Below are positions 22,506 to 53,200 of a stretch of DNA of 64,000 bases, piece after piece. The notes below the pieces were generated by a model. It saw nothing but the letters and a program-made list of their open reading frames with translations. It had not been told where the DNA came from and searched no databases. How positions within the stretch are numbered: position 1 is the stretch's first letter; each line of letters opens with the position of its first letter. The translations under genes and the position numbers were made by a program. This DNA comes from Bugula neritina (taxonomy: Eukaryota > Animalia > Bryozoa): NCBI GenBank assembly GCA_964035545.1, contig OZ037765.1, positions 12,906,698 through 12,970,697 on the forward strand, in the 5' to 3' direction.

Positions 22506-22734
22506 ATTGATAAATTTAATTATAAATTAATATTTATAAAATTATATTAATATAAATTAATTTATAATTAAAATATTGATGTCAAAAAACCCTTTTTAAC
22601 ACAGGGTTATAAGTATATACATCACTCTGCTTTTTAACGCTAATTTTGGCATCTGGTCACAGAAAAAGAAACACACCTGCAACTGTAAGTTTATAAGTAA
22701 TAGTATTCACAGTGATATTTGACTTAGTCAAGTA

Positions 22735-27400: not shown

Positions 27401-27555
27401 TACCTTGAAGTTTTTGATAATAAACAATAATTATAAGAAATGTGCGTACCTGTGACATACACCGTAGCTCCAGCTTCTCCCAATTGAACAGCAATTCCTT
27501 TTCCAAGACCCCGACTAGATCCAGTCACCAAACATACTTTTCCAGATAACGCCAT
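24453..27555 (-). CDS. DHRS1: DHRS1-like short-chain dehydrogenase/reductase, paralog A (short C-terminus)
   Basis: 8 exons approx. 27555-27450, 26664-26462, 26114-26020, 25860-25726, 25478-25333, 25127-25044, 24880-24798, 24484-24453. Motifs: TGSSRGLGKG (Rossmann), VCDHS, LDVLVNNAY, YGIGK (YxxxK), GESPEFSGK. Confidence 0.85.
26273..26430. repeat. TG-rich compound microsatellite in a DHRS1-A intron
   Basis: (TGTGTGTTGTA)n/(TG)n visible. It explains the spurious His/Thr-rich ORF 26200-26433. Confidence 0.9.
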
Positions 27556-28962
27556 CCTTTATCTGAGGTATTACATAATGGCAGCATATACTAACATTAT
27601 TTTCTTGATGAAAGCATATTATTATTATACGTATTAACTCAATCTGATTCTAGATAACTCAATAATTAATATACCATACAGTTTTAATTTGTTTGATTAA
27701 CCCACACATTGGCATCTTTAGGTTTTTAGAACTAAGAGACCTGTAAATTGTTCTGTTATAACATCAGTATATAATATTTCTTTGAGAGAAATGCTAAACC
27801 CCAACGTTTAATTCAGATAGAAAGTTTTATGCTGATGGAAAAATGTGATGAAAATCACCAGAAGCATTCGTATGTTGAGATAAAATCACTGTCTTAAATG
27901 TTTGTAAAAACTGTCATATAAATTGCAAGACATTACAAGGTCATCGTTTAATAACGCATGTAGATTTGGTATGTCTGAAAATTGAAAAGTATGGGCTACT
28001 TTAGTTATGATAGCTTGAATGTATGTAATATATGAAATAAGTGCTTATCTCAATAAGTTTATAAGTAGCAACTTATCAGATAAAAAGCATTTTGAAGAGT
28101 AACGTTTATTTAACTACTGCAAACATAACTTTAGCCAACATAAAAATGTCAGTTATAATTTAATTGGTGTGGTAATCAGTGTAATGCCAAAATTAAAAGT
28201 GATATAAAGCTATTGGACAACATTATTGATAGAGCTGCAAAGTCAATATCGTAGCAAATGTTGTAATTAAGCCTGGACTGAAAATTTACATTATAATGTC
28301 TTAAATAAAATATAATAATAATGATTAGTAGCTTAAACAGTACAGAAGATGACACAGATTTGGCAGCAGCAACCACAATCAAAGTTTAGCAAAATCAGCT
28401 GAAGAGAATTAATAGAAGCAAAATAGAAGGTGACTATTTTAAGCCAGATGTAAATAATGTAGTAAGTTATAGCAGAATCATTGATTAGTTTTGTTGATTT
28501 TCAAAAATATTTAGCAGAAAAAGAATGCAGCCTAAAAAAGAGTATATAATGGAGGCTTACATATAGAGCAATGCAATGAATCTAGCCAAAACATTTAGAT
28601 TATAACTAATTATAGCAGCATGCATTTTAATCAGCTCAATATTAACAGAAACACTATATAAAACAATATATTATACACATACATACACATGAGGATTGAT
28701 TGTAATCAATATAAAACTAATACATTTCCAATACATTTAAAATGATCTCCCATATATTTCACTGAACAAATTAATACAATAGGTTTTCACAAAAATACTC
28801 TGACAACAGAAACCAGATAATCTCCTTATTGACAGATAACGTTAAGTTACACAAGGTGCTTATCTCCTGTAAGAGAAGATGGGGCGTGGAGCAGCAGAGC
28901 ATAGTCAAACAGAAATAAACACTCAGACCACAAACAAGATAGCTATGTCAGGTGACCAAATA

Positions 28963-31900
28963 TCAGAACCGGGAGGTCGCCATAGCAATAATAAATCTGG
29001 GAACTTTAATAAAACTGGGCACCCAGGCGGCAAGCCTTGAATATCCGGCATAGTCCAGAAGATAGTTTACTTGTCTGAATGATGCCTTTTGCGTTCCTAC
29101 AACGGAACACAACCAGACACTATTACCAAAGAAATAGTAAAATCAATAGAACTTGTTAGAAGTATTTTTTTCAAATTAACACTTAATTTATTTAAATACT
29201 TAAAAATAATAACTGTGAAGCAATAAAAAGCTAAACACATGTTGAGTTACTGAATGATGGCTTGGCAAACTGCATGTATATTGTATTTTCTTTGAGAATA
29301 TCAGCAGTAATAGAATTTATCATGGGATATTTCCGTTTTGAAGTAGAAATTATTTTGTGGAAAATTTCAACTCCAACACTTACCATCAATGTCTTTAAAA
29401 CCATACTCTTGAGCTATCTCTGCACACATACAGATTAGGCCAGTTTTGTTGATGATTTTACTATCTGCAAACACATAATACTTTAATCAGAAACATCTAA
29501 CAACGTGGAGGTATTTTTATGGTTTTGTGTTACAGGGAAGAGATTTCAACAAACTCCTTATACTCCAGTTTTCACTTCAACTACGCATTTTAATAGAATG
29601 AAGCTGAATCAATAATAGTGATAGAATGTAATATGCAAGACACAAACCTGATGCAAGAGCTACAACAGCTTTCCCAGAAAACTCACAACTTTCTCCATTC
29701 ATGAATGTTTTTGAAACTTTACTTTTCTAAAAAATAATTGTAAGAGGTCTAAAAGTTAATTTCTTAAAACATTTTAAAAAGTGAAATGAGCATTTTGAAG
29801 CAGCTACTGGGTCAGTTATCTTAGTAGAAATCTCAAAAATAACGCATGGAATTAACAATACTACAACATAACTAGAGCTAAATTAATCCTCCATATTATA
29901 GGCCAGCATACATACTTCTGTAGCTAAAATGTGCTCAATATTTTCAGTAACTACAGCTCCAGGGTATAACGTCAGGCAAGTCACTCCCACTCCTTTAAGC
30001 TCCATAGCCATATCAGCAGACATCTTATCTACCTAAATACAAATTAATATCAGCTGCACAAACACCGAATATTACAGTAGGCACTGCATTATCACAGTAT
30101 GTCAATATACTTGCCGGTTACCAACTACTTAACAAAGTTACCACCAGGTTTTAGATGAATGACCACTATGGATAACAAATATTGCACAGGCACTGACTTT
30201 TGGATTATGCTGCAATGTTACTATAAATTATCTGTTATCTTACAGCATACTGGTATACCATATACCACTATACTCATATTTTAGTAACACTCAAGGTCAA
30301 CTGATAATTTCAAGTATTCTCTATAACAGAAGAGCAGTAACACTTACAGCAGCTTTGCCCACACCATATGCCACATTAAACAAGTATCTGAGGCCACCAG
30401 GAGAAGAAATGTTGATTATGATGCCTTCTTTTTTCTCACACATCATCTGAGCTGCATATGTGCTGCAGATGTAGTGATTCCTACACAAGAAGTAAATTAT
30501 TACTTGATTACAAATGTATCTCAAACTTTGTCTCCAGCAAAAGGTAGCTATACAATACTTTAACACTCATGGCAGCTCCCAACATCCCTGTTCAAAAAAT
30601 TGTACCCATTACAAAAAGTATTTGTTAATTTGCAAAGGCTATAAGAATGTTTTCAGACAACAATTATGTTTATAGAAAAATATATTTTTTTTTAAAATGC
30701 CTTCAATGTGATGATACATTGTTTATTGTGAGTGAAGTTAAAACTTGCCTTAGCCCGACTTGGTTCACAACATCCCACCATTGGCCTGGATCTTCTTCAT
30801 ATTCCCAAAACTTCTTGCCACTTTTTACTTTTTCAAATATTCCCTTTGAAAGAAAATCAACTATGAAGAAGTTAACCTTGGCTAGTTTATTGACAACCTA
30901 ACTTGTCTTCTTTGACACATACTCAAGCTGTGGATTTAACAAGTTATTGAAAATGCATTTCTTGGAATGCTAGTCTTGTGGTATTTTCCCTTTATATTTT
31001 GATTATATTGTATTGATCAATTAATGTTATAAGAACCTCTAGCACTACAACTTGACAAATCTCACTAGAAAACTAACACCAATGCACATTGCATTTTCTG
31101 TAACTTTAATGCAAGGGTTAAATGTTTTTAAAAGGATATAAATTTGAACGACCAGAAAAAATGCCAATTTTACTTTATACTACCTCAGTAAAAGCTTACC
31201 GTAACAGCAGCATATGCATTGTTCACAAGGAGATCTAATCTGCCATGATCTTTTTTGATTCTTGTAAATAAGGCCTTGACCTCTTCATCATTTGAATGGT
31301 CACAGACAACTGCTATACCCTTTCCTCCTCTGGCATCAATTTCAGTTGCTGTTTCTTTCAAACTGCCACCAACAACCGATGCTTCAGCGGAAGATGATCG
31401 CCCTAAACAATACCTTATATAGTTTAAATTTAAAGCCAACTACAAGAAGAATATTTTCAGCATTTCTGTGCAAAACCAAATAAGGTTCCTTAATAGTAAT
31501 AGTAGTTTATGCCACAGACTTAAAAGTTGAGCATAGACAGCATGATAAGATTGATCCATTACCAAACTGAGTTCTAGGCTATGATTATCTAAGGTTGGTC
31601 AAGTGATCAGATAGATAAGTATAACGTAAAAGCTGCGTGAGAGAAAACTAGTTTTATAATCTTTTAATAAATGTGGCTAGCATCTCATAGTTTATCAGTT
31701 AAGCAATAAACAAATATGAAGCATAAACTTTTTGTTATCAAATTAGCAAAATTACAAACCAGGGTAGTGGGCTAAGCATGACAAGTGATATAATAATGTA
31801 TCTGGTGGCACTTTTCTACTTCAATTTATCTGATTAGATGTAAAAGCCTAAAGCTAAAGATTACAGGACCTCATTTCAAAGTAGATCTGCAAATGAAAAG

Positions 31901-35705: not shown

Positions 35706-35958
35706 ATCATCATCATGTGACCATCATCATTATCATACAATCACAGTGCTCATCGCATACTGACACTAACCTTAGCAACTAAGCGAGGTTATGGTGATGG
35801 CTAAATTAAAATGAAATCAACATCATGATTCATAATGATGGTAATGGTAGTCATATTGACCTTAATCATTGCCTAGAAGTAGAAGTAGATTATATCGTAG
35901 CATATTAATTTTGATTTAGACTAAAATATTAATAATAATATTACATTTACTGTCATAT

Positions 35959-36263
35959 TGTGGTGGCTCGTGGAGCTACCAGCAACACAATACGCAAGGT
36001 TGCGTATTGACCCGGAACAATGTATTAGCCAATTAGCTAAGCTGTTGGATAAGTAATAGTAGCCGCTTCGCGCTACTAGCTCAGTTGAGGATAGTGCTAT
36101 AAATTAAATAGACGTGCGTATCATTACTGTTGTACATTGGATTTTATTATGTATTCTTGTATTAAATATAACGATATCTACTCGACTTAACCGGTGAAGT
36201 TCCTCTAGTGATAAATAGACTCTCTTGGATAGCACATCAACCCTAAATCTGAAAACTATAACA
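35959..36263 (+). repeat. 5' LTR
   Basis: TGTGGTGGCTCG...AACTATAACA; TATA-like CTATAAATT; matches 43097-43401. Confidence 0.97.
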
Positions 36264-36264
36264 G

Positions 36265-36282
36265 TGGTGGCAGCGGTGGGAT
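36265..36282 (+). other. primer binding site, complementary to the tRNA-Leu 3' end
   Basis: TGGTGGCAGCGGTGGGAT, 1 nt after the LTR; reverse complement of the tRNA-Leu terminus ...AUCCCACCGCUGCCACCA. Confidence 0.9.
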
Positions 36283-36296
36283 AGTGTATATCAAAG

Positions 36297-37163
36297 ATGG
36301 AGACTGAAAGTGCTAGAATGCAACCACCCCCAGTAGAAGGTGAGCGTAGAAATGCTGTTAATCCTGTGAATCGTGAAGGAGAAGAAGCTTATAGACATTG
36401 CTTGAAAGCTCCCACCTTTACTGGGTCGGAAGATGTCGAACAATTTATACAAGAATTTAGAGAGGTAATGGAAGTTGCTAAATGGCCGCATAGAGTGGCC
36501 CTCATTCAATTGCGGAGAGCGGTGACGGAGCAAGCCAAGCCGTACGGAGTGGGAACGGACGTAGACGGCATACTGGCTGCGCTGCGGGCCCGTTTTGGCA
36601 CCTCCGTCATAGACGCTAGGACCAAGCTGGAGAGATTGTGCCGCACCCCGCGGACCTCGCTGCAAGAACATGCCGCGACGGTGAAGAAGCTGGCGCAGAT
36701 TGCATATAGCGATCTGCCAGCACAACACCAAGAGCGTTACACCTATGACGCCTTTGTACAGTCCCTAAACGACCTGGGCCTAGACCATCACCTACGAGCT
36801 AAAGGGATAACCAGAATAGAGGATGCCCTGAAGGCTGGAGAAGCTTACCTGTTGGCTACCAAAATGCATCGAGCACAAAGGAACCCACCAGTAGTTGGAG
36901 TCAGCGCTGCCAGGGCTACGACAGGCTCCGAAACCCTCCCGCTGGAAGCCGAAGTGGACCGTATGGTAGAGATGCTGGGACAATTGGTAACCATTCTGGC
37001 CGGTGCTGGCCCCGGTCAGGCCTTGCGGATGCCCCCAACACCTGTGGGGCAGGGCTGGAGTAGCGCTGATCAGGACCAGGGACAGAAAGGACGACCCCAA
37101 TACCAGGGGGCGTTAAACTGTCACGGCCCGCGGACACACTCCCTTCCCGCGGGCCGCAACTAA
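36297..37163 (+). CDS. gag: Gag (288 aa, capsid-like, no CCHC knuckle seen)
   Basis: First ORF after the PBS; KAPTFTGSEDVEQFIQEF...ALRARFG...SLQEHA...LAQIAY is a retrotransposon capsid pattern. Confidence 0.9.
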   Translation: METESARMQPPPVEGERRNAVNPVNREGEEAYRHCLKAPTFTGSEDVEQFIQEFREVMEVAKWPHRVALIQLRRAVTEQAKPYGVGTDVDGILAALRARFGTSVIDARTKLERLCRTPRTSLQEHAATVKKLAQIAYSDLPAQHQERYTYDAFVQSLNDLGLDHHLRAKGITRIEDALKAGEAYLLATKMHRAQRNPPVVGVSAARATTGSETLPLEAEVDRMVEMLGQLVTILAGAGPGQALRMPPTPVGQGWSSADQDQGQKGRPQYQGALNCHGPRTHSLPAGRN

Positions 37164-37169
37164 AGGAGT
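37112..37169 (+). promoter_or_regulatory. -1 programmed ribosomal frameshift signal (G UUA AAC + predicted pseudoknot)
   Basis: Slippery heptamer in the gag frame at 37112-37118, 5-nt spacer, 10-bp stem CGGCCCGCGG (37124-37133) / CCGCGGGCCG (37147-37156). Loop ACTCC can pair with GGAGT (37165-37169). The -1 frame is open downstream. Confidence 0.8.
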
Positions 37170-37451
37170 ATGGTGGAACGCGCCGTCGTCTGTCCGTACG
37201 GACACGGCGGAACATTCCACCCGAGTGGCAGGTACCACGCAGGACTAGTAGGCCCGCACAACGGCCCAGTACCTTCTCCCTGCCACTCGCTAACCGGTTT
37301 CACCGGTTACCTCGGGAGGAGGAGCCCGCCACTGAAATGGAGCCAGAAGGCCCAGTGGAGAGGCCCCAACCCCGCCGGCACCAACCTCGCCGCCGGAAGC
37401 CCCGTAAACCACGGGTGAAAACCCCGCCGTCCTGCCAAACCAGGACAGCAC

Positions 37452-40400
37452 ATGCGGGGGGGGGGGGGGGTGAAAGTACAACCACATGGAGAGAGCTATT
37501 TCTTACCCGGAAAGGTGGCCGGCAACGCCGTCACTTTCCTGCTCGACTCCGGTTGTACTACCAACCTTCTCAGTCGTAGAGTCTTTGAGGCACTGCCCCG
37601 CCGGGACAGGGATAGAGTACGACCGTATACTGGAGAACATGGCACCCTGGCAGACGGGTCATGTATCCCCTTTTATGGTATTATCGAGCTCTCTGGGCGT
37701 GTCCGAGATCAGGCTGTACAGGAGACCTTTATCATAGGTCAACTGGAGGAAGATGCTATCCTCGGAATGCCCTTCTTGAAGCAACACCAGTGCCGAATAG
37801 ATTTCAGTAAGTCGGTGGTGCTGATGGGCGGGCGAGAACTCGCCTGTGTGGATAAGTTTGGGCGTCCTCTGGTGGGCGGTGTTCAGGTAGTTCGGAACTG
37901 CACTGTACCCGGACGCTCCAGAGCTACTATCCACTGCCGAGTGAACAGCAACCGGATAGCCAGGCTCGGGGTCGTTGAAAGCGCGCACGAAAAGATCCAA
38001 CTCGCCAGTAGTTTAAACCGACTAACTGAGCGAGGGGAGGTCTTAGTGCAGTGCGTCAACCCCTTTACCGAGCCCATTGAGCTCCCAGCTGGGTCAATGC
38101 TGGGCCGGTTCCATTCCGTCCAGGAAGAGGACGTGGGCCCGTCGCTGGGTGACGCGACGGAGGCACCCCCTCGATACCCTATTCAGGGACGAGGGGCAGT
38201 CCCAACACATCTCCGGGAGTTATACGAAACAGCCAGTGGCGGCTGCGCGAGTAACAGAGAACGCCAAGCTATGGCCAAGTTACTACGCGACTACGGTGAT
38301 GTGTTCAGCAGCGGAGAACATGACGTGGGACTGACTGGAATTGTCAGACACGAAATACCGCTGACTGCAGGGACAGTCCCTGTCCGGCAACCCACGCGCA
38401 GGCTGGGGCCGGAGAAAGAGAAGGAGGTTAGCCGACAAGTACGGGATCTTCTGGACCGGGGACTGATAGAGCCCGCCCATAGTGCGTGGAGCTCGCCAGT
38501 CGTACTGGTCCGGAAGAAAGACGGCAGTTGGCGGTTCTGTGTGGACTACCGCAAACACAATAGCGTAACCATACAGGACGCCTACCCTCTACCTCGTATT
38601 GACGAGTCATTGGACGCCCTAGCCGGCAGCAAGTACTTCAGTACGTTAGACTTGCTAAGCGGCTATTGGCAGGTTCCTCTGAGTCCCGACGCCCAAGAGA
38701 AAGCGGCGTTCATCACACGGGACGGTTTGTGGAAGTGGAAGGTGCTGCCCTTCGGGTTAACCTCCGCCCCAGCCACCTTCCAGAGGCTGATGGAACAAGT
38801 CCTTAGCGGACTCCATTGGAAGACACTGCTGGTCTACCTCGATGATGTCATCGTAATCTCTCCAGACTTCGAGACACATGTCAGTCGTCTGCAGGAGGTT
38901 TTCGAGAGACTCCGAGGTGCCGGTCTTAAGCTCAAACCTTCCAAGTGCGCTCTGTTGCAGCCGGAGGTCAAGTACCTGGGGCACGTTGTCGGTCGAAACG
39001 GCGTGGCAACGGATCCCGAAAAGGTACGGGCAGTAGAAGACTGGGTCACCCCCCAAGACTTGACCGGACTCCGGGCTTTCTTGGGGCTGGTAGGGTATTA
39101 CAGGCAATACATACCAGACTTTGCGGGCATAGCCCAGCCGTTAAACCGGCTTACCGCAAAGGGAGTGACGTGGCAGTGGACTCCAGTCGAACAAGAAGCG
39201 TTCGACCGCCTCAAGGGCTGCCTCCTAACGGCGCCCATCTTGGCCTACCCAGACCCCACTCTGGAGTACATCCTAGACACGGACGCCAGTGACCAGAATG
39301 TTGGCGCTGTGCTGTCACAAGTGCAGGAAGGCCGAGAAGTAGTAGTAGCCTACTACAGCAAGTCTCTCTCTCCCGCTGAACGAAATTACTGCACTACCCG
39401 CAAGGAGCTGCTGGCAGTAATCAAGTCAGTGAAGCACTTCAGACCATACCTATATGGCAGGAAGTTTCGGCTGCGTACGGATCATGCCTCGCTGATTTGG
39501 TTGTGCAGGAGAGCAGAGCCCTCTAGTCAGGTCGCCCGGTGGCTCGAAATCCTAGCTGAATTCTCATACCGGATCGAACATCGACCGGGCAAGAGACACA
39601 GCAATGCGGATGGGTTGAGTCGCCGACCTGACGGAGGTTGCAAACAGTGTCTCAACATCGAGAGGAGGGATGGAGGTCCCCCGCGATGCGAGTTAGAGAC
39701 GCTGGCTCATCACGGAGCACCGTTTGACTGGGATCAAGGTCATCTCAGGCAAAGAGTTGATGAGTCCCCGGAGGATGTACAAAACCTCCGCGCCAACCCT
39801 GTACTGGCCGGTAATGTTCGAGAGCTGAAGAAGCTCCAAGAAGAGCTGCCTGGAGTCGTGGCAGACATATACCGGGCCAAACGGGAAGGGCGACGACCCA
39901 GCGAGGAACGCATACGACAGGGATGCGCCGAGTTCCGGCTATACTGTCAGCGTTGGGACTCGCTGCGGATCGGGCAGGATGGGTTGCTAACCATCTCTCT
40001 AGCTGCCAGCGGCAGACACCCGGAAAGGAAGAGGGTAGTCTGCCCCACAGCCATCCGCCGTGAGTTGATTTGGGATACTCACAAGCAGGCCCACGCAGGG
40101 GTCAAGCGAGTGATATCCAAATTACGACTCCGGTGGTATTGGCCGCAGATGGAGCGTGACGTCCGGCTCAGAGTCAAACAGTGTGAGATCTGCCAGGCCA
40201 GTAAGCATAGCCGCCCCCCTGGTGAAGCAGGACGGCGGAGGCTATATGCTGGTAGGCCCTGGCAAGTAGTCGCTGTAGACCTGGTCGGACCCATGCCCCT
40301 GACCCCCAGAGGCAATAATTGGATCCTAGTACTAACCGACCACTTTACTAGGTGGGCGGATGCTCTGGCTATCCCAGATGCATCAGCCCCAACAGTGGCC

Positions 40401-41744
40401 AGGGCACTAGACCAACATGTATTCTGTTATTTTGGGCTTCCCGAACAGATACACTCTGATCAAGGCGCTCAATTCCAGTCTCAACTGATGAGCGACCTTT
40501 GCCACCTCTGGGGAGTAAATCAGAGCAGGACCACCCCCTACCACCCTCAAGGTAACGGGGTGGTGGAGCGCAACAACCGGATGCTAGGTGATGCACTCCG
40601 GAGTCTCCTCCTTGGACGAGGTCAAGAGGAATGGGATACGGTGTTGCCGCAAGTCATGCGTGCATACCGTAGCACCCCACACACCAGTACTGGTGAGACC
40701 CCAAACCTCTTGATGCTCGGGAGAGAGACTCGTGTCCCTGACCATCTCACCTATCACGTTCCAGAGCAAGACAACTCGGTTCACGAGTATGCCAGTGATC
40801 TAGTGGAACGGATGAAGGCCGCACACGATATACTGCGTCAACAGCAGTGGAAGGTGCGGCACGAAGATTCCGATGAACCACCTCTCTATCAAACGGGAGA
40901 TAAGGTGTGGATGGTCAATTACCGTAGGCGTCGCGGACAGGCTGACAAACTGAAGCCTAAGTTCGTAGGCCCCTACGTGGTCGTCGAGGCTATGCCCAAT
41001 CATACGTACAAGATCGAGCGCTCAGGACAGGTGTCTATCCAGAATGAGTCTCGCTTGAAACCGTATTGGGCTAGCCCTGACGGAGTGGGAGAAGCCCCCC
41101 CGTTGTTAGAGCCCAGGAGGCAGACAACGACGCGCGGGCGACGGCGGCATGGACCTGAATACGAAGTGGTCATACCGCGGGAGGAAAACTTGGTGAGAGA
41201 GGAGCGGCAGCTTTTGTCAACAGAAGCATGTCCGCCACCGCCAAGTCTAATTCCATCACTTCCAGAAACCGAGCCGGTTCCGGAAGTGCAAACCCCCACG
41301 GAGGGAGGGGCTCCATCCGGAGAACAAGAAGAGGTGACCTCTAACGGTGAAGTAGAGACGCCATTAGAGGCCCCTACTAACGAACCGGCAAGCGTGTCAC
41401 CCCCCCTAGAAAGGGGACAGCGTACGAGGAAACCCCCACCGTATTTGAAAGACTTCATATGTGACTGCATTAGAAGCGGCGCACATGAAAGTCTAGGGGA
41501 AAACCGTACGATAAAATGTTGGAGTTGTGAACCCCACGCAAATATCAACTTTTGCGAGGGCGGAATAGTGGGAGGAATTAATGCGCGTAAAGCAAATAGT
41601 TCCGACCTCGTGCCTCAGAAACGATGCTCAGCCTTTTCTTATGCTGACATCGCCAAAGGCAGACGTACCTCACAACCAGCTCCAACCTTACCAAGAACGT
41701 TGAGTATGGACATTAATACCGAGTTCCCAGGTAAGCCAGTATAA
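37452..41744 (+). CDS. pol: Pol polyprotein: protease, RT, RNase H, integrase with GPY/F and a long C-terminal tail
   Basis: LLDSGC (PR); WSSPVVLV, FCVDYR, LPFGL, YLDD (RT); LDTDAS, ERNYCTTRKELLA, TDH (RH); H-x3-H...CEIC, VAVDLVGP, HSDQG, GNGVVER, FVGPY (IN). The true start is upstream via frameshift. Confidence 0.97.
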   Translation: MRGGGGVKVQPHGESYFLPGKVAGNAVTFLLDSGCTTNLLSRRVFEALPRRDRDRVRPYTGEHGTLADGSCIPFYGIIELSGRVRDQAVQETFIIGQLEEDAILGMPFLKQHQCRIDFSKSVVLMGGRELACVDKFGRPLVGGVQVVRNCTVPGRSRATIHCRVNSNRIARLGVVESAHEKIQLASSLNRLTERGEVLVQCVNPFTEPIELPAGSMLGRFHSVQEEDVGPSLGDATEAPPRYPIQGRGAVPTHLRELYETASGGCASNRERQAMAKLLRDYGDVFSSGEHDVGLTGIVRHEIPLTAGTVPVRQPTRRLGPEKEKEVSRQVRDLLDRGLIEPAHSAWSSPVVLVRKKDGSWRFCVDYRKHNSVTIQDAYPLPRIDESLDALAGSKYFSTLDLLSGYWQVPLSPDAQEKAAFITRDGLWKWKVLPFGLTSAPATFQRLMEQVLSGLHWKTLLVYLDDVIVISPDFETHVSRLQEVFERLRGAGLKLKPSKCALLQPEVKYLGHVVGRNGVATDPEKVRAVEDWVTPQDLTGLRAFLGLVGYYRQYIPDFAGIAQPLNRLTAKGVTWQWTPVEQEAFDRLKGCLLTAPILAYPDPTLEYILDTDASDQNVGAVLSQVQEGREVVVAYYSKSLSPAERNYCTTRKELLAVIKSVKHFRPYLYGRKFRLRTDHASLIWLCRRAEPSSQVARWLEILAEFSYRIEHRPGKRHSNADGLSRRPDGGCKQCLNIERRDGGPPRCELETLAHHGAPFDWDQGHLRQRVDESPEDVQNLRANPVLAGNVRELKKLQEELPGVVADIYRAKREGRRPSEERIRQGCAEFRLYCQRWDSLRIGQDGLLTISLAASGRHPERKRVVCPTAIRRELIWDTHKQAHAGVKRVISKLRLRWYWPQMERDVRLRVKQCEICQASKHSRPPGEAGRRRLYAGRPWQVVAVDLVGPMPLTPRGNNWILVLTDHFTRWADALAIPDASAPTVARALDQHVFCYFGLPEQIHSDQGAQFQSQLMSDLCHLWGVNQSRTTPYHPQGNGVVERNNRMLGDALRSLLLGRGQEEWDTVLPQVMRAYRSTPHTSTGETPNLLMLGRETRVPDHLTYHVPEQDNSVHEYASDLVERMKAAHDILRQQQWKVRHEDSDEPPLYQTGDKVWMVNYRRRRGQADKLKPKFVGPYVVVEAMPNHTYKIERSGQVSIQNESRLKPYWASPDGVGEAPPLLEPRRQTTTRGRRRHGPEYEVVIPREENLVREERQLLSTEACPPPPSLIPSLPETEPVPEVQTPTEGGAPSGEQEEVTSNGEVETPLEAPTNEPASVSPPLERGQRTRKPPPYLKDFICDCIRSGAHESLGENRTIKCWSCEPHANINFCEGGIVGGINARKANSSDLVPQKRCSAFSYADIAKGRRTSQPAPTLPRTLSMDINTEFPGKPV

Positions 41745-41761
41745 GTCTTGTATTCCTATTC

Positions 41762-42835
41762 ATGGAAACGGGCTCGATGCCAGTAAATTCTGAACTAATT
41801 CAGCAGATTGAATCAGAATTACTGGGAACCACGTTTCATGTGAATGACGATGAAGACACTGTAATGGCCGACGGTCTGTTAGACCTGGAGCTAGACACTG
41901 TTCTTGGTCAGTCCACACATGATTCATCAGTTCCTCGAGTGCATTCCAAAAGCTGTGACTCTCAGGCTAGCAACGGTCGACAGTCACTAGAATTATGTTG
42001 TAAAGATCCACCGCGATCTAACAATAATTCTACTTTTGTAGACACACTCGCGCCCGTCTCTCCGGGCATGCCTTCTCTAGAGATGGCGTGGGACCCAGAG
42101 CCGGCCCCAACAACTCCTACAACCAGGCAACTGCCACCCCAGTTGGAAGCAACCTCCAACTGGATTACCCCTGCCACAGAGAGAGAAATCAGGACCCATC
42201 AAGGAGGTGAGAGTAATCGTGAATGCAACCTCTGCCAGCAGCGATTCACAACCCACCGCAGACTAAAAGTACACTTGCCGCAGCACTACATCACCACTTT
42301 CTGCCCTTGCGGAGAATATAGCTACAATCGTGATTACCTACTGCGGCACCAACGTACTATGCAGTGCTATCAAGGGCATGTCTATGAAGTAGACGAATCA
42401 TCATATCCTGCCTTTCTCAACGCCATCAAACCACTCATCACTGACTCAGCTCGGCTATCTCGCCTGGAGCAAGGCTTCCCTTCCCCGCGACCCATCATCT
42501 CTGGAGCCGCAGATAAACCTACACAGTCTACTAACTCTCCACCTCACAGTCCTATACGCATGCCGCATACCTTTCCTCGTGTCGTACTACAGAGAGTAGA
42601 CACCAATGCGTATACACTCCCTCCTCCCCTTCCATCCTCAGAGCGGAAAAGACACAGGCAACCAACTTCCTCTCGCTCGTCCCCCTGGGCCCGTAACCTA
42701 CGTGAGGTAGAAGCTAGGGCGCATGACTTGGAGCAAGAAGTGTACAGGCTGGCCCCACGGGTACAGGCAGCATCCAGTGAACTCAAATATTTACAGGAGT
42801 CTATTAAACGCATGAAGCGTGCGGCCCGCCGCTAA
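41762..42835 (+). CDS. ORF3: acidic N-terminus, two zinc fingers, Pro/Ser-rich linker, C-terminal coiled coil (not Env)
   Basis: Uninterrupted 357-aa ORF inside the element. CNLC-x12-H-x3-H (canonical C2H2) and CPC-x12-H-x5-C. Heptad-like RNLREVEARAHDLEQEVYRL...LKYLQESIKRMKRAARR. No signal peptide or TM segment. Confidence 0.82.
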   Translation: METGSMPVNSELIQQIESELLGTTFHVNDDEDTVMADGLLDLELDTVLGQSTHDSSVPRVHSKSCDSQASNGRQSLELCCKDPPRSNNNSTFVDTLAPVSPGMPSLEMAWDPEPAPTTPTTRQLPPQLEATSNWITPATEREIRTHQGGESNRECNLCQQRFTTHRRLKVHLPQHYITTFCPCGEYSYNRDYLLRHQRTMQCYQGHVYEVDESSYPAFLNAIKPLITDSARLSRLEQGFPSPRPIISGAADKPTQSTNSPPHSPIRMPHTFPRVVLQRVDTNAYTLPPPLPSSERKRHRQPTSSRSSPWARNLREVEARAHDLEQEVYRLAPRVQAASSELKYLQESIKRMKRAARR

Positions 42836-43085
42836 CCCGAGTCTACCTACAACTCCCTACTACTCATTCCCCTACCTCTCTGTGGCATTCCCTACCGTAA
42901 TGGTGGCACGTACTCTATATGTAGATAGGACCTTCTCTTGCTTATTACTTAGTGCACGTTATATATACCTGTATATTTTTTACCAGTTGTTGTTTTTTTA
43001 TTACTTTTATACTGTTCTCTTACCCCCCACTACGAAGTATACGTTTTATGTGAATCTTATTTTATCAGAAAGTGGGCTTTCTGCT

Positions 43086-43096
43086 GGAGGGGGCAG
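43086..43096 (+). other. polypurine tract
   Basis: GGAGGGGGCAG immediately before the 3' LTR. Confidence 0.85.
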
Positions 43097-43401
43097 TGTG
43101 GTGGCTCGTGGAGCTACCAGCAACACAATACGCAAGGTTGCGTATTGACCCGGAACAATGTATTAGCCAATTAGCTAAGCTGTTGGATAAGTAATAGTAG
43201 CCGCTTCGCGCTACTAGCTCAGTTGAGGATAGTGCTATAAATTAAATAGACGTGCGTATCATTACTGTTGTACATTGGATTTTATTATGTATTCTTGTAT
43301 TAAATATAACGATATCTACTCGACTTAACCGGTGAAGTTCCTCTAGTGATAAATAGACTCTCTTGGATAGCACATCAACCCTAAATCTGAAAACTATAAC
43401 A
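43097..43401 (+). repeat. 3' LTR
   Basis: Identical by eye to the 5' LTR; followed by the ATAT TSD. Confidence 0.97.
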
Positions 43402-44749
43402 ATATTCACTTTCAGTCTATCACTCACCATCACCGTGACTATCAGTGTGGGCATGGCTATCACTATCAGAGTTCAGATACTGATAGTCATAGTGATAGTC
43501 AATGGCATATTAATTATTATTAATCAATAATTTAATAAAATTAAATATAATATTAATACTAATTTTAAATTTAATTAATAAATTATAAACTAGAAACTCA
43601 AATATTCATAACTCATAGCTAAATTTTAAATTTAGGCTACGTTTATGCAACATAAATACCATAGCTAAACTTCTATTAAATTTAGAATTTAGGAAGGCAC
43701 TTTTTCAAAACTTTTCCTAGCAAACATGAATATATTATTATGTACAACTATTTCAGTAGTAGTGGCCGCTTTGACTTATTAATATTATTTCAAAATCATG
43801 GCGAAAGGGTTAAAGGTTACACTTCTCTCTGTTTAATGCTAGCAACGCCCAATGAACTACAGCTCCTCAGCTAACGTTCAATGGCAACGCCCACTGAGCT
43901 GGAATAGACTAATAATTATTGAGTTCATTGGCAACGCCCGTCAGCTTTAGCGCAGACTGAGATTAAGAACGACTACTAGTACAGCAGTAAAAATCGGTAC
44001 GGTTACAGATTACACCTACACGCGCAATAAACCTCGATGAAAAAAAGCATGCTAATAGTCTGAAACCAAGTTACAATGTGAGCAAAATTTACTAAAAACA
44101 GCACGGAAATGGGGGCTAATAAAAAGTGTTAGTTGTCCGAACTTTGAACCCCGACGCCAAAACCGAGACTCTCGAATCAACGCATGCAGTGACCACAAAC
44201 TGGGGAGGGCGTTTCAAGCGATTGTTTTTGTGAGCGAGCACATGGCGAAAAAAAATTACCTTTCAGTTTTATTCAAAATAGCATCCTGTGTGTAGAAGTG
44301 CACCCAAAGCTACAGCAGATTGAACCGCCTTACTTTAAGCTTTCAAGTGACAGAATTGATGTTATCAGATATTCTGATTGCAACGTAAGGAAAAGCAAGG
44401 CCAAGTGTTTAATTTTAATTTTTATCATTAATCATTATCATTATGATTAATAATTATCTTATGAATTATGATACTCATACTGATAGTGATACTGATTATT
44501 ATTATAAATATAATATTATCTGTAAGTCAAAGTGTATTTGTAAAGCAGACAATATCATAATGTTACCTCCAGTTACCTCCAGTTTACGATCATGCTAGAC
44601 CACTAGGTAGCAGAAGCGGCATGCCTCATATGTTTACGGTTGGTCAGAAAATAAAATGCATACAATAGTCTATAAATTGGTTGCAGTGTGTGTTGCAATA
44701 TTGTTTATTAGTACAGGTAAGTTAACCTGTCAATGTTTAGATTATTCTG

Positions 44750-47514
44750 TGTGTAAATTAGTCTTGCAAGGATTGTTCCCTTTAAGGCCACGGATTGTCC
44801 GTGGCAAGAAGCTGTTATAATAGCAGTTATTATTGGTGCTGACTGATCTTGGCTGTCCTAGTGTTTGGACCCTAGTTTGGATAAAACTTTCCAGGGTATA
44901 TTAGTTCGTCATACGCTGCAGAGAAGGCTGGGTGATATTCTTCCTTTTGGAGTATCCTCATAAGGAGTCTTAGCCGTTGAGTTCTTCTTCTTTCATCGAG
45001 GGCGGCCAGCTCCAGTCTTTCTTTTGCTTCTCGCACTCCTCTTCTACCCTTGATGTTAGCTATGGCTCTTACTGCCGGTGTTTGTACCTCTTCGATGGAA
45101 TTTATTTCTTTTGTAGTATAGGGGTCCCAAACAGCAGAAGCATAGTCTAGGTGAGGAAGGCATAGGGATTTGTAAGCCATGAGTCTCACTTTTTCGGGTG
45201 CCCAGTGCAAAGCTCTTTTGATCATCCCCAGTTGTTTGTTTGCTAGCAACATTTTGCTCTGGATATGATTATCAAACTTCAGGTTGGCCTGTAGAGTCAC
45301 TCCGAGGTATGTTGATTTGTCCACCTGTTCTAGAACTGTGCCATTTAACGTGTAGTGTGCTGGTATATCTTGCTCTTTGAATGCCATAATTTTGCTCTTT
45401 TTAACATTAAACTCCATACCCCACTTTGAAGCCCAACTTCCTGCTGCATCTATGTTCCTTTGAAACCTTAGTCTGTCTTGGGCATCTGAGACAGGCTGGT
45501 AGAGGAGGGTGTCATCTGCGAAGAGACCAACTTCACAATCAACACAGTCAGGAAGATCATTTATTAACACGAGAAACAGTATGGGGCCGAGCACAGAGCC
45601 CTGAGGTACCCCAGACGTCACTGGCAGTGGTTCTGACTTTTTACCATCGAGTACGACCCTCTGAGATCGGTTTAGGAGGAAGTTGTGTACCCATCTGAGC
45701 AGATAGTCTTTCATTGGTGCAATTGTTCGTAGTTTCTCCATTAGAAGGGCATGGGGGACCCGGTCAAATGCTTTTGTAAAATCTAGGACTGCTGCGTGAA
45801 CAGCCTTATGTTTATCGACATAGTTCAGTATCTGATGGAGAGTGGCGCATAATTGGGTCTCGCAGGACAAGCCCTGGCGAAAGCCGTGTTGTCTTGTGCT
45901 CAGTACATTGTCAACGTTGGCAAGTATTTTACATAGGATGAGATGTTCTGCCATTTTACATGGGATGCTAGTGAGTGAGATGGGTCGATAGTTTTGAGCA
46001 CAATCCTCTGCACCGCTTTTATGGATAGGGGTCACATACGCCTCTTTCCACTGGGTGGGGAGCTTCTGTTGATTCATAGAAGTTTTGTATATGATCGCAA
46101 GACAAGCGGATATTAGTGGGAGATCAACCATCAGATCTGCCTTCCTCAGGCCATCTGGACCTGGAGCTTTTCCAGGCTTGAGGTTCTGTATTAACTTGGC
46201 AATACCATTGCTGTTGATATCTGGTGGATTATCTATGTTTGCTGAGTTGGGACCAAGTGATGTCAGTTGGTGCCCACTGTTGAACTGGGAGTGGAAGAAT
46301 TTGTTGAAGGTTTCCGCACAGTTTTCTGGATCTGCGTTAAGGGTACCATCAGTCATTTTGAGTTTTATGCCATTTTTGTTACTTGAGTTTCCTTTGAGGT
46401 GCCGGTAAAAGGGCTTACTGTTGCCTTCTAGGAGTGGTTGGATGATTTTATTGTGACCATATTCACTTTTTACCATCCTAAAGACTTTCTTAGCTGTTTT
46501 CCGGATTTCCTTGTATTTTGCATAACTGGATAAGTCCCCGTTTGTTTTGTAGTGATTATAGCTTTTCCTCTCTTTACGTGATATCCGTCTACACTCTTTG
46601 TTAAACCAAACAGGTTCATTTTTAAGCTTAGACGACAGTACTTTCGTTTGGACATGGTCACATATGGCCTGTTGTAGACTAGATGAAAAATGATCCCACA
46701 TTTCCTGTACATCATCCAATTCATCTAGGTCATGTTTAGTTTTTTGCAAATCTTCCCGGAATTTGTTGATATCTACTCTGTGGTAATCTTTGACAGTTTT
46801 GGAGGTTACTATATGGTGGTCTTTTGCTTTGTTTTATCGGATATTTGCTTTTATCATGGCGTGATCACTTAGCCCTGGGAAGATTACGTCTTGGGATGTT
46901 AAGTCTTGGGGGGAGTTGGTGCAAAGTAAGTCGAGCGTGTTGCCATGAATGTGGGTTGGTGAGGTTATTAGTTGACTTAGGTTATAGAAGTTCAACATAC
47001 ATAGGAATGAGTTATGAAGGACCTTATCCTGGGCCTTCAGTTTGGGTTGATAAGTGTGCCAATTAATGTGAGGGAGATTGAAATCCCCGGCTAAGATGAT
47101 GTGGTCATTGGGGAACTGTTGAGTTAATAATTCTAGGTTGCTACTCAATATGGATACATCTCTATCATGTGGGGGTCTGTAGTAACATCCGACAATTAAG
47201 CTCTCCTCTATTCTTACAAATATGATCTCGGCACTAGTTTTATCTTCTATGTTAATTTGGGTAGAGCGCAGGTTGTCATCAATGGCGATTAAGACCCCAC
47301 CCCCATTTACATTACGATACTTTCTGTAGATCCTTTTGTTGTTATAATCAAAGATGGTGTGACTTGGTATCATCTGATTTATGTGTGTCTCAGTCAGGCA
47401 GATTATGTCGGAATTATATGTTTGTGATGATAGTTCAATAGTTTTGCCTTTGAGAGATCTCACATTGGCAAGAAAGAATTTTAAACACTGGTCTGTTTGG
47501 TCATGTATCGCCAT
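44750..47514 (-). pseudogene. LINE ORF2: APE endonuclease + reverse transcriptase, frameshifted
   Basis: ANVRSL, IICLTETH, GGGV, YRPP, GDFN, TLDL, SDH (EN). KAPGPDG, YRPISLT, QHGFR, LDFTKAFD, GVPQGSVLGP, FADD (RT). C-terminal SFLPRTIR lies in another frame after 44872. Confidence 0.93.
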
Positions 47515-48510
47515 TCCCTGAAGGAGATTTTGTCTGTATTTTCATATTTCTTATCCGATAGTCAGTTTCTTGGTCAGTGTCACTGTTTTCCCCTTTCATT
47601 TGTTTTATCTCTTGCCGAAGGGCATACTGCTGGTCACGGATCTCTTTGCATTCATCAAGTTTGCAGTAAATCTTGCGTCCACGTAGTGTAGCATTTGTTC
47701 TTTTTAGGAATTCCCACTTTGAATATTCGTCTGGAAATTCTATTTTAATCGGCCTTGGTTTGTTTTTGTCAACTGGTCCTGAGGTCTGTAAGCGTATTGC
47801 TCTTAGGGGTTTCGGAGTTGCATGGAAAGTATCACTCGTCATTAGGTCTTTAATCATCTCCAGTGCGCTTTTACCTTCCTGTTCATCTATGCCATAAAGA
47901 ACGGCATTATTTTTCCTGTTTTCAGTCTCCCGTTGTTCAATACTCTTCTTCAGCAGGTTTCGAGCACTGTCGCTGATCTCCATCCCTTTCTTCAGGTTTC
48001 AGTATTTGACTTTGCAGCGTCGGCATATGATTTCTCTAGTTTTGTCATACTTTCTTCAAGGGCAGTGTTTGTTGCTCCAATCTTTGCATTAATTTGTTGC
48101 ATTATGTCTTCAATTTTATTAAGCTTTCTTGAGTGGGTGCTGTGAAGCGCAAGAGAGTCTTCACCGTTGTTGTTCACCCTGTCTCAGCCTTGAAGAGAAG
48201 CTTCAATGACTGGAAGGCATGTGTTGCAGAACCATTTCACATTCTTTTCATCCATTTTGTCTAGCGTAGCAACATCTGAATTGGTGAGGCTTTGGCAGGT
48301 ACCATGGAACCAATCATCACAAAAATCACATTGGATCCACTTAGCACCAAATTTTTGAGAAAGGCCTTTTGTGTTAGTAACATAGCAATCGACAATGTTA
48401 CAAGTTTTGCATTCTGGGTTGGTCGAGTCTTTGTTTTTGTCATTTTGAGACTGTTGTGATCCTGGTTGTGGTTGGCTTTGAGTGTTCCAGTCACCAGCCA
48501 TCACGGACAA
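47501..48510 (-). pseudogene. LINE ORF1: PHD finger, coiled coil, RRM-like region; split into three frames
   Basis: CKTC...WIQCDFCDDWFHGTC...WFCNTC (48184-48510), KSYADAAK, RKNNAVLYGIDE...KPRPIKIEF. Confidence 0.85.
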
Positions 48511-49050: not shown

Positions 49051-50268
49051 ATTACCTCTGATTACCTCTGATGAGGTAGAACGCTCTTGACCATCATAAG
49101 ACGTTAGTAGAGCGCCTCATGTGTGTGACAGGGAGTGTTCCGTTGTTTTTTTTAGTGCTTCCGCATTACCGCTGATATTATTCAATTTAGATGGTGATAT
49201 TTAAAAGGAAAATTGATAGGTAAGCTAGGTAAACCCTCTCATGTCGCGTATCGTTCTTGGTAAGAAACTTTGGTGGTAACAGCTAGAGCGAGAAGAAATG
49301 GAGTTAGGTAAACCTTTTGTTGCTGATCTCGTAGTTACGGACATGAGAGAGCGATTTTCCACAACCTCATCATAGTCTGATGAAAGTGTACTGTGTGTGG
49401 CTTCAGACTGTAGAATACGTGTCAATAGTGTGAGTCTATGATTTTTACGCCTCGCTTGTAATGGTAGTAGACCCAGTTCGCATCGAGCGTCACTAACACT
49501 CTCTCGCCCCTTGAGACCTGATATGAACCTCACAGCACGGTTCTGAACCATTTCTATATCATGTATGGTGGTTTTTAAATAAGGATCCCAGAGGATATCT
49601 GCATAATCCAACCATGGACGGCAGAGGCTGGTGTAAGCCAAGAGTTTGCCATTTTTTGGAACATCATGGAGAACAAACTTTATTGCTCCCAGGACTCTGC
49701 TATTTTTTGTGATTTCAGCGCAATGTGTTTGTCAAATTTAAGGTTACTCTGCATGGTCACACCGAGATACTTGGTCTCTTCAGTCTATTGGAAAGGTGTA
49801 CTCCCAAGCTTATAAGATGGAAGGCCTGTTTGGCGACCAAATGATATAGCATGGCATTTACTTTCATTAAAAGGCATCTTCCACTGTTGTGACCAGTTAT
49901 ATACTGCATCGATATTGACCTGGAAGTCTGAGCATCTGCCTCTGAGTTTACTCTTTGGTATAACAGGGTGTCGTCTGCATAAAGACTGACACAACAATTG
50001 ACACAACTTGGTAAATCGTTAATATAAACCAGGAATAGTGTGGGTCTTAGCACAGATCCTTGGGGGACGCCGGATGTTACTGGGAGCTCAGTTGAGCATG
50101 AGCCTTTGATTACAACTCTCTGTTTTCTGTTGGTGATGAAATCTTGAATCCAATTTATAATCTGTGGTTTAACTTCTGGAATGCGTTGTAGTTTCAGTAG
50201 CAGTAGGGAATGGGGGACCTTGTCAGATGCTTTTTTGAAGTCTAGAACAATTGCATGTGTGTCTTGTG
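49051..50268 (-). mobile_element. 5'-truncated CR1-group LINE (RT C-terminal half)
   Basis: AIVLDFKKASDKVPH, GVPQGSVL, YADD, SFLPRTIRD; (ATTACCTCTG)2 tail at 49051-49070. Confidence 0.88.
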
Positions 50269-50269
50269 A

Positions 50270-53200
50270 TGTCTCTGGTTGTCTAGCACCAAGAATTGAC
50301 TCAACCTTCGCGGCATTTGGAGAGATGCCATCTTTAGAAAAAATATGACCAAGAAGCTTGATGGAACTCAAACCAAAGCAACATTTGACAGGATTTAGAG
50401 TCAAGTGACACTCTGACAAGTAAGCCATCACTTGCATTAGCCTATCTCTGTACTCTTCAGAATCCTTACCAAACACAACTATGTCATCAGCCATGTTTAA
50501 GACACCACTAAAACCATTGATAGTTTTCTGAATTGTGTACTGGAATACTTCAGGAGCAACTGACACTCCCATTCCAAGCCTACGAAATAGACCTACATGG
50601 CTAACAAAAGTAGTAATGTCTCTGGAACTTGGCTTCAGCTCACACTGAAAGAAACCCTGACGAAAATCTAGCTTAGAAAGTACCTGAGCACCATTCAACT
50701 CTACAAGCATCTCTTGAACGGTAGGAACTAGATATCTTTCTCTGATGATAGCAGTATTGACTCTATGCATGTCAACACAAAGGGGAACCTCATCACCTTC
50801 TTTAGGAACTACAACTGAAGGACTAACCCACATAAAAGCTACACCCTGCACTGGCTCAATAATATCCTCCTCAACTAACTGATTCAAAGGTTTCTCAACC
50901 CTACTGTGATAGCTAAATGAAAGCCGTCTAACTGGTTGGGCAACTGGTTCGCACTCAGTATCTATATGCAACTTGACCTGTACATCTTTCAGCTTACCAA
51001 CACCGCGGAAACATTCTGGGTACGGTGCCTTTACATAACTAACTCAGCATCACTGATATCTGTAACACTACACATGTTAGGCTTCATATGAATGACATGA
51101 CGTTTGCTAGCAGTTTCTGCACTCATAAGATTACATGCACTACCATCAAAAACATAAAATATAGCATTAGAAGTATGTGAGTTAACAGTAATTTCTGCAC
51201 AAAACTGACCCAACAATGGTAAGGGAGTTGATTGACCATACAAACTCTTAGTAGCAGGTTGCAATACTATGTCATTACTCAACAGTTCATATGTATGTTT
51301 GTCAATAAATCTAAATCTACAGCACCTGAGTCTATTAGAAAAGTCACTCTCTTACCACCAAGTGCAGTTTGACACTTGGGAGTTTGTTAGCTGTTCTCAT
51401 TTTTAACTACGAACTGATTACTGAAACTGTCAACAGCCTTTGGAGTTACAACTGGCTCCACAGGAGTGTGCTGTACAGTGTTTGTTATAGATTTAAAAGT
51501 AGTCTTACTATGGCAGTACTTGGATCTGGCATAATTTACAGTCTTCTTGCAGTCTCTGCAGGTCTTGCTTAAGGCAGGGCAACTCTCATCATGAGATTTA
51601 TGTCCAGCCTTAGAACATCTGAAGCAGATTATGTCCCTAGTAGAAGTAGTATGAATCTTTTTATTATTGCTAGTTGTGGTCGTCTTTTTGTTCTGAAAAT
51701 TTGTTACTCTAGCAACAGCGTTATTAGCAGCAGTCGGTGTGGCAGTAATCATCTCCCCTTCTGGTAGTTGAACTGTAGCTGCTACTTCCATAGCTTCATC
51801 TCTCTCTCTCTCTTTGCTATCCCTCTAAGTAGAGTATGATGTCTGCCTGCAGCTGTTTGTGAGTAGCTTGATGACTTCTGAGTCCTATCAGTGATCTGCA
51901 TATGCGGTCACAGCGGAAGCATTTGAGGTCATCACTCGGTGTGTCTGTTGAGCTAAGCCTTCTTGCGGCCAGCTCTAAGTTCGTCTCTGTGTCGCATTCT
52001 TTCTTCTTCAAAGATTTGCATGCCTTTATGAACCATAGATCTCTATCTGGTCCTCCTTGCGGCATTCCATTCCCAGGTCTCTGTTCTGATGTGAGAGCGC
52101 TTCATACTGTCTTTGAGACAGTCTTTAAAGCGCTTCCTCTGTCCTCCTTGCAATCTTTTACCTATTTGTAGCTCCCCATAAAGGATCTGTTTAGGAAGTC
52201 TGTGACTTTTCATTCTCACTACATGTCCCGACCAACGAAGTCTGTTCTTGGTGACGAGGCTTTCAAGGCTTGGAATCTTTGTTTGTTGGTATACGCTGTT
52301 ATTAGTGCGCTTGTCAGTCCATTTGATGTCCAGTATTCCTCGCAATTTTCTCATGTGATAATTTTCTAGCTTCTTTATGTCAGTACTGTATGTAGCCCAT
52401 GTCTCAGATGCATACAGAAGTGTTGGTATGATGACAGCCTACTCACTACCCTGTCCCTGCCGCCACCTTCTAATCGCCATAGGGCTTTGTAAGTGTTTGC
52501 AGGCAGAATGCTGTGCGTGGATTAAAGTGGTTCTCATGATGCATTACAGAGAGCCACTGGCTTGGCTTGTCATACCCTGATCCAATGGCAAGGATACCTC
52601 GACAATTGGGGATATAATAAGTTGCAATGGACAACCGTTGGTCTGTTGTTCAACCTCAACCTGGCTGGAATAACGCATCCAGATGGTTCACCTTCATGCG
52701 GTAGAAAACAATATATGACATTGGCAACATGGAACGTCCGGACACTTATGGACAATAAGAGCAGTGACAGACCTGAGAGGCGTACTGCATTTGTGGCGCG
52801 TGAACTCAGAAGACTGAATATTGATATCGCTGCACTTCAAGAGACTAGACTCGCAGATGAGTGTCAGTTGACTGAGATGGGTGGCGGCTATACATTCTAT
52901 TGGAAAGGAAAGGAGGCAGATGACCACAGGCTGTATGGAGTGGGTTTTGCTATCAAGAATGAACTGGTAAAGCACATGGATCATCTTCCTGTTGGAATCT
53001 CGGATCGACTGATGACTCTGCAGATAAACATTGGAAATAACAGGAAAGCTACCCTGGTCAGCGCATATTCTCCAACGCTTTTGGCTGAACAGGCTGACAA
53101 GGAGCTATTCTACTCAGCTCTTGATCACACAGTGTCACAGATCCCGATTGCTGACAAGGTTGTTCTACTGGGAGACTTCAACGCAAGAGTTGGTACTGAC

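Follow-up and report, generated by a model that had tools for sequence, protein, structure and literature searches.

It is understood for few retrotransposons with long terminal repeats (LTRs) and no envelope gene how unspliced RNA is kept in spite of the splice sites they carry; CERV, from the C. elegans element Cer1, is the clearest case. This question is raised by a Ty3/gypsy element of the bryozoan Bugula neritina, found in a 64,000-nucleotide (nt) stretch of assembly GCA_964035545.1 (contig OZ037765.1, positions 12,906,698 to 12,970,697, forward strand; hereafter the window), which has a third open reading frame (ORF3) behind gag and pol. We found that ORF3 encodes a non-Env protein with zinc-finger and coiled-coil regions, and we consider it somewhat better than an even bet (probability roughly 0.57) that it is translated from a subgenomic messenger RNA (mRNA) spliced from 36339 to 42041 and acts as a nuclear regulator of the element's own expression. 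The splice between the donor in gag (D1) and the acceptor in ORF3 (A1) would join 14 Gag codons, the source of the start codon, to a 264-amino acid (aa) finger and coiled-coil exon, giving a product of 278 aa. Predicted RNA stems that cover the branch point and pyrimidine tract would make A1 an inefficient site, leaving enough unspliced RNA for Gag, Pol and packaging, and a longer form retaining the segment upstream of A1 (region U) would add an acidic part. The second donor, at the end of pol (D2), would most likely supply a second short leader (from ATG 41706) or serve to remove region U, and not to make a Pol fusion. Such an arrangement, with an unnamed zinc-finger family in the ORF3 slot, a conserved donor and a structured acceptor, would be an unrelated-looking solution to the same problem and, if true, would suggest that regulatory accessory genes and structure-tuned splicing are more general in retrotransposons than the env-centred picture has it.

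The element and its third open reading frame

The retrotransposon lies in AT-rich, eukaryotic host sequence and has the hallmarks of the Ty3/gypsy (Metaviridae-type) group, namely an LTR pair, a target duplication, a primer-binding site (presumably matching tRNA-Leu) and a polypurine tract. The two LTRs are 100% identical over 305 nt, have TG...CA termini and are bordered on each side by the 4-nt target duplication ATAT; given the identical LTRs, the element is young. The pol domains are ordered protease, reverse transcriptase (RT), RNase H and integrase, and the RT is nearest to that of Ty3 (Ty3 Gag-Pol: E = 8e−127; the nearest solved relative). The features discussed below, in window positions, are as follows.

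35959–36263 (+): 5′ LTR, TG...CA, with TATAAA at 36098 and ATTAAA at 36103 and 36161
36265–36282 (+): primer-binding site, identified from its sequence
36297–37163 (+): gag, 288 aa, ATG at 36297, no Pfam family
36297–36339 (+): predicted coding part of exon 1, 43 nt (14 Gag codons and 1 nt)
36337–36345 (+): donor D1, AAG/GTGAGC, phase 1, coding for an E-G-E island
37419–41744 (+): pol open reading frame, with protease, RT, RNase H, integrase (H2C2, rve, SH3-like) and a tail of ~90 aa
41706–41730 (+): candidate start, ATG 41706 to D2, 25 nt, A at −3 and G at +4
41728–41736 (+): donor D2, CAG/GTAAGC, phase 1 in Pol in this copy only
41731–42041 (+): region U, a candidate 311-nt intron and also the open, acidic 5′ part of ORF3, with predicted stems
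41762–42835 (+): ORF3 from its first Met, 357 aa (open frame 41735–42835)
41762–41914, 42104–42505, 42638–42664 and 42683–42829 (+): acidic part, zinc domain, basic patch and coiled coil of ORF3
41780–41826 (+): strong hairpin (z = −4.3) with the weak acceptor A2 (41783) inside its 5′ arm
41947–42038 (+): predicted stems pairing the A1 branch point (42018–42022) and pyrimidine tract (42033–42038)
42018–42041 (+): acceptor A1, CTAAC branch point, T-rich tract, TAG, phase 1
42042–42835 (+): predicted terminal coding exon, with linker, two zinc sites, basic patch and coiled coil
43086–43096 (+): polypurine tract, identified from its sequence
43097–43401 (+): 3′ LTR, identical to the 5′ LTR

The expression of ORF3 had been likened to that of env in an earlier note on this DNA, but an identity as Env does not hold. 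We found no membrane segment, the maximum 19-aa hydropathy being 0.58 in ORF3 and at most 0.96 in 11 relatives, and searches for fusion-glycoprotein homology (Pfam, PDB sequence and Foldseek) gave only zinc-finger and coiled-coil matches. ORF3 has neither signal peptide nor transmembrane segment and cannot be an envelope. The AlphaFold model has a confident domain at residues 124–257, a long helix at 317–365 and a low-confidence helix at 17–31, the remainder, including most of region U, being disordered. Seven Cys/His residues are invariant across 74 sequences. The first zinc site is a canonical finger (C164, C167, H180, H184) which resembles those of C2H2 proteins such as SALL4, ZBTB and HIC2 (profile E down to 2e−7), whereas the second differs from these classical proteins in being atypical, CxC-x12-H plus a further C and H. 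The zinc domain scored under the Pfam cut-off and had no Foldseek match in PDB at E ≤ 0.001, and the ESM Atlas returned unnamed and C2H2 clusters with recognition under threshold.

The ORF3 family comprises 214 clusters at E ≤ 0.001, with host finger proteins among them, and its core motif was present in 81 of 146 newly listed members (at least 81 clusters at 50% identity); two matches, P0394 and P0414, were set aside as ordinary multi-finger host proteins. Judged by these sequence comparisons, ORF3 is a member of a large unnamed zinc-finger family. The acidic segment (12 D/E and no K/R in 51 aa), the fingers, the basic patch and the coil together suggest a nuclear regulator. As to its role, LTR transcription control, or anti-silencing, stands at slightly less than even odds; RNA export or splicing control of the CERV/Rev type, to which the basic patch and coil are relevant as features of the sequence, is rather unlikely, and some other role a shade more so.

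A predicted donor in gag and acceptor in ORF3

The splice signals described in the earlier note were all recovered: AAG/GTGAGC after 36339, CAG/GTAAGC after 41730, CTAAC at 42018–42022, TTCTACTTTTGTAG to 42041 with an exon from 42042, and CCAG to 41783. The phase was 1 throughout, as had been claimed, for D1 in gag, D2 in pol and A1 and A2 in ORF3. There is thus both an in-frame donor near the 5′ end and an acceptor upstream of the ORF3 domains, and joining D1 to A1 leaves an open frame of 278 aa, or of 364 aa when D1 is joined to A2. Agreement in phase between any one donor and acceptor has a 1-in-3 chance. D1 and D2 are the sole MAG/GTRAG sites on the plus strand of the element.

Conservation of these signals was assessed through amino acids, because scans for the DNA of relatives yielded nothing usable, and was drawn from 53 ORF3, 106 Gag and 117 Pol-tail homologs, many of which are decayed copies. 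For D1, the N-terminus of Gag was available in 58 of 107 rows (window included). Its codons correspond to residues which are highly conserved in the Gag homologs (E14 in 46/50, G15 in 44/51 and E16 in 51/51), standing between ten flanking columns conserved at 25–67% and behind an upstream stretch which varies from 3 to ~17 codons. Where position 15 is not G, GT is still possible in 5 of 7 residues (S in 4 and R in 1, both NGT-compatible), two Gags missed by the filter show E-G-E, and the two most distant ones G-G-E. This is the pattern of a kept donor, and on the protein alignments it is well supported.

A1 ranks second by T content among the 265 YAG sites of the element and, alone among the top 12, has CTRAC 17–40 nt upstream. 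In shuffled sequence this combination of rank and spacing had P = 0.022 for the whole element (500 shuffles) and P = 0.001 locally, with the thresholds for T content and CTRAC distance chosen post hoc, when the site had already been seen; a stricter first filter (10 of 12 pyrimidines) failed to pick A1, which has 9. A YAG is compatible with the residues at A1 in 42 of 43 relatives, where exchanges among L, S, V and I centre on an NYA codon. With D1 as a conserved island, A1 as the best acceptor and the precedents of idefix and CERV (below), the proposal that ORF3 is reached by a subgenomic mRNA spliced from a donor in gag is likely.

The second acceptor did not fare so well. The site at 41783 had been put forward as a weaker alternative; all 27 of 27 relatives are compatible with it, but so are they with four other YAGs of region U, and A2 has neither a branch point nor a tract, its AG lying inside the hairpin. 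It is without independent support.

Region U, the second donor and competing readings

The ORF3 frame of region U is free of internal stops, whereas the two remaining forward frames contain 10 and 9; from composition this has a chance of ~0.002 (an arithmetic estimate). Similarity among relatives is 0.68–0.83 in region U versus 0.55 for the coding linker. Its substitutions, unlike those of the fingers and coil, are no more conservative than neutral ones (mean BLOSUM −0.45, −0.91 and −1.0 versus −0.32, −0.36 and −0.59). On these patterns region U is doubly constrained, being at once coding-like and RNA-constrained. The earlier suggestion of forms with and without the acidic domain is plausible, given that the frame of the acidic part is unbroken in every lineage and that this part recurs in distant members of the family; a strongly acidic 30-mer follows the finger in 4 of 58 of these.

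The RNA of this region is predicted to be structured. Positions 41690–42100 fold with z = −3.6, and the branch point and pyrimidine tract of A1 are predicted to be paired with probabilities of mostly 0.6–1.0. Across positions 86–100 the sole strongly variable codon is that of the loop. Using the bases implied by relatives' residues we found three compensatory pairs, together ~four events on the tree: 41955–41987 (G-C in 10, A-U in 29; two changes on the exon-only tree), 41963–41979 (C-G in 32, U-A in 5; one change) and 41988–42032 (U-A in the window, C-G in 39 relatives). Overall 1071 of 1335 cells pair, versus 367–518 in slid controls, although this comparison has a bias in favour of the window. 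Of 35 tightly linked pairs from a blind scan, 6 were Watson–Crick in both states, 2 of these being predicted pairs, and a search of Rfam gave no match at E ≤ 1. We regard support for a conserved fold over region U and A1 as modest but real.

Several results weigh against splicing from D1 to A1 as the main source of ORF3 protein. The donor strings by themselves are within chance, because 300 shuffles gave a mean of 0.75 MAG/GTRAG sites and P(≥ 2) = 0.16, and YAG-compatibility at A1 is weak on its own, because 17 of 348 ORF3 column pairs also pass the same test. The E-G-E island may instead reflect a motif of the protein, or a U1 site which only blocks the poly(A) signal of the 5′ LTR. Of 34 tested pairs upstream of A1, 4 are largely not kept and 2 more only partly, and the mean folding z of −1.6 over the pol tail and region U is little below the −1.4 of the pol core. 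Profile scans with the ORF3 and integrase-tail alignments recovered nothing usable from relatives' DNA. In 25 of 53 relatives, with every clade represented, region U stays open from a common Met, and a strongly acidic 30-mer precedes the finger in 26 of the 41 distant members with enough upstream sequence; because of these two observations, the long form containing region U may be the main product. Finally, no splice joint was seen in the RNA run described below. Separately from these points, the sole result of the DNA scans, locus L001, was rejected as a chance bacterial match.

Two sequence runs cover the stretch: an RNA run, X1, which is shallow, consists of contigs only and may include DNA, and a DNA-like run, X2. 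The 20 contigs of X1 over gag, pol and ORF3, at depth 2–13, contain no splice joint, a result which neither favours nor disproves splicing. Three of its contigs fall within 41640–42160, all starting at 42065 or later, and none crosses D2, region U and A1; this gap is compatible with splicing but, cover being patchy elsewhere, was not used as evidence. X2 (217 contigs) shows 0 differences at 10% in 41640–42061 and four beyond, which is a weak hint only, as contigs lose variants. It should also be noted that no Gag-type start fused to a finger domain was found among the 53 and 146 family proteins, which are mostly gene calls on DNA.

In one rival reading ORF3 is not spliced at all and is made as the 357-aa acidic form from ATG 41762, by an internal promoter or by reinitiation after the pol stop, with D1 acting as a U1 site against polyadenylation in the 5′ LTR or as a Gag motif and A1 being a by-product of conserved RNA structure. 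The shared Met, the stop-free frame and the family-wide acidic stretches would all be expected to favour it, as would the spread of full-length starts over all clades (15 changes against a shuffled mean of 17.2, with 95 of 500 shuffles as low; 2 of the 53 ORF3 homologs and P0053 were left out of the tree as too short). A block of polyadenylation by U1 is known, in that U1 at the major donor suppresses the 5′ LTR poly(A) site in HIV-1 and foamy viruses (PMC12789967), and in the present element an ATTAAA at 36161 lies ~180 nt upstream of D1. However, an unspliced ORF3 leaves the branch point, T tract, AG spacing and phase of A1 unexplained and does not fit with substitutions in region U that are no more conservative than neutral ones, and ATG 41762 has T at −3. 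We consider it unlikely, if the least unlikely of the rivals. A purely accidental origin of all the signals, none of them in use, in a region that is structured and evolves slowly would agree with the shuffled donor strings and with the lack of a junction in X1; the E-G-E island and the rank and spacing of A1 argue otherwise, and a conserved third ORF needs some route of expression, so that this is the least credible explanation of all.

D2 lies in a tail of ~90 codons past the end motif of the integrase (41470–41744), in which an FSYAD motif is conserved in 29 relatives and the position of the stop is variable (one of 30 Pol tails, P0188, a regex match, was excluded as non-homologous). None of the 29 relatives reaching FSYAD has the Pol phase of the window at D2: 19 stop short of it, in some cases perhaps because a contig runs out, and the other 10 terminate in V[PL]R-stop. 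As V[PL]R-stop encodes the letters of the donor in another phase, these letters appear to be kept, and the sequence of D2 seems to have been retained while its Pol frame was not. In the same 10 relatives Y-E/D precedes V[PL]R-stop at a constant distance and can contain the ATG. ATG 41706 itself is in good context, and a join of D2 to A1 puts it in the ORF3 frame with 272 aa. The donor is predicted to pair in this copy with CUUACC at 41686–41691, a U1-like anti-donor (41686–41735), a pairing which is apparently not kept in relatives.

D2 to A1 might instead carry the main splice, with region U retained or removed in a transcript starting in, or spliced into, the pol tail. The short and long forms would then start at ATG 41706 and ATG 41762, respectively, and D1 would provide a leader only or serve another target. 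The two sites bracket a 311-nt segment which is structured and highly similar among relatives, and the implied D2 letters and the well-placed ATG would suit it; on the other side, the sequence upstream of 41706 yielded neither a persuasive acceptor nor a persuasive promoter, and D2 is predicted to be paired in this copy. Three candidate acceptors for a small exon ending at D2, at 41658, 41679 and 41695, were rejected, none having a good tract or clear conservation. We consider this reading improbable as the main route; it is compatible with splicing from D1 to A1 and does not exclude it.

The earlier note had also raised a fusion of the Pol tail to the zinc fingers. Made by splicing of genome-length RNA from D2 to A1, such a protein might steer integration. 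The join is in frame in this copy, and in some other lineages Pol and finger probably share one frame with no need of splicing: 3 of 81 distant family members have an integrase-tail-like motif in frame ahead of the finger, and BLAST finds a match to the Pol tail in a fourth. The phase, being found in 0 of 29 closer relatives, largely refutes the spliced fusion as a conserved feature, and an integrase domain was absent from all 30 family proteins scanned; we hold such a fusion to be very improbable. Distant members noted as having such a motif in frame before the finger are P0392, P0400, P0413, P0314 and P0280, the last of which has the finger module in two copies. The Pol tail (41470–41744) may function as a cis element, or else be what is left of a longer Pol-finger frame.

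Known systems and the surrounding sequence

The system closest to this one in working mode is CERV, a protein of 517 aa encoded in five exons, which has H/M/G domains and is reported to lack any obvious homolog outside nematodes (PMC10309623). The ORF3 described here differs in its C2H2-type finger and CxC...H site, acidic N-terminus and C-terminal coil, and the general ORF3 protein searches, which did not include a direct sequence comparison with CERV, gave no CERV-named match. Errantiviruses of the idefix subclade express an env-F ORF3 from a spliced subgenomic RNA whose donor lies within gag (PMC12992720); the likeness lies in a third ORF with a donor inside gag and the difference in the lack of a signal peptide or transmembrane segment in our ORF3. 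LTR elements of bdelloid rotifers and plants carry non-envelope ORF3 cargo which is specific to each family and for which spliced messages are expected, and some of the additional plant ORFs are nuclear with a proposed regulatory function (PMC5408684, PMC5718144 and PMC7264820). Their cargos, unlike the present one, are GDSL, DEDDy, coiled-coil, transmembrane, SMC-like and transposase-28 proteins, and the terms 'zinc' and 'zinc finger' are absent from the available text of PMC5408684 and PMC7264820. Retroviral systems with Rev, Rex or Tas share weak or structured splice signals which spare genomic RNA and a major donor near the 5′ LTR (in part PMC12789967); the element with ORF3, whose structured acceptor is predicted, differs in having no retroviral homology.

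Neither the finger family nor a structure-hidden acceptor in an LTR retrotransposon is described in the literature searched (including PMC8220671), while Repbase, Dfam, subscription journals and supplements were outside its scope and may hold the family. A further idea, which we regard as doubtful, is that a widespread group of envelope-less LTR retrotransposons has a circuit like that of complex retroviruses, in which a zinc-finger regulator of an undescribed family, made in long (acidic) and short forms, would itself read the structured, doubly constrained D2–A1 segment as a splicing switch or response element and so set the balance of genomic and spliced RNA.

Elsewhere in the element, the CCHC knuckle is absent from the Gag of the window and of its relative P0054 (37040–37160) and present in 28 of 106 Gag homologs, 22 of which 106 have an L[NK]xxGP ending (21 in the L-N form). 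A GTTAAAC at 37112–37118, just upstream of the gag stop and within a strongly folding region, is likely a −1 frameshift site into the frame at 37070–37579. The frame after gag and that of pol are broken apart at a G run (37456–37470), the length of which varies among X2 contigs; in relative P0150 the two form a single frame. The discontinuity reflects either broken access to Pol in this copy or a misassembled homopolymer. One X2 contig fuses both flanks of the element (35931–43418) with a single ATAT, resembling an empty site or a related repeat, and the insertion may be polymorphic.

Downstream of the element lies a cluster of decayed retroelements (44872–47998 (−), 49225–51043 (−), 52526–53284 (+), 54300–57926 (−) and 58987–60230 (−)), which contains RT and endonuclease of a long interspersed element (LINE), an ORF1-like frame with baculovirus FP domains, a mixed gypsy/LINE RT frame and others. 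Upstream of it we found a host exon of a C2-domain protein at 9748–10803 (−) and, at 24795–31412, tandem duplicated segments ~4.6 kb apart and 72–95% alike, which probably represent exons of a host gene that was duplicated. Positions 14073–14342 and 22140–22530 are taken up by a tandem array of 18-nt units and a minisatellite of the self-complementary TACTAATAG type.

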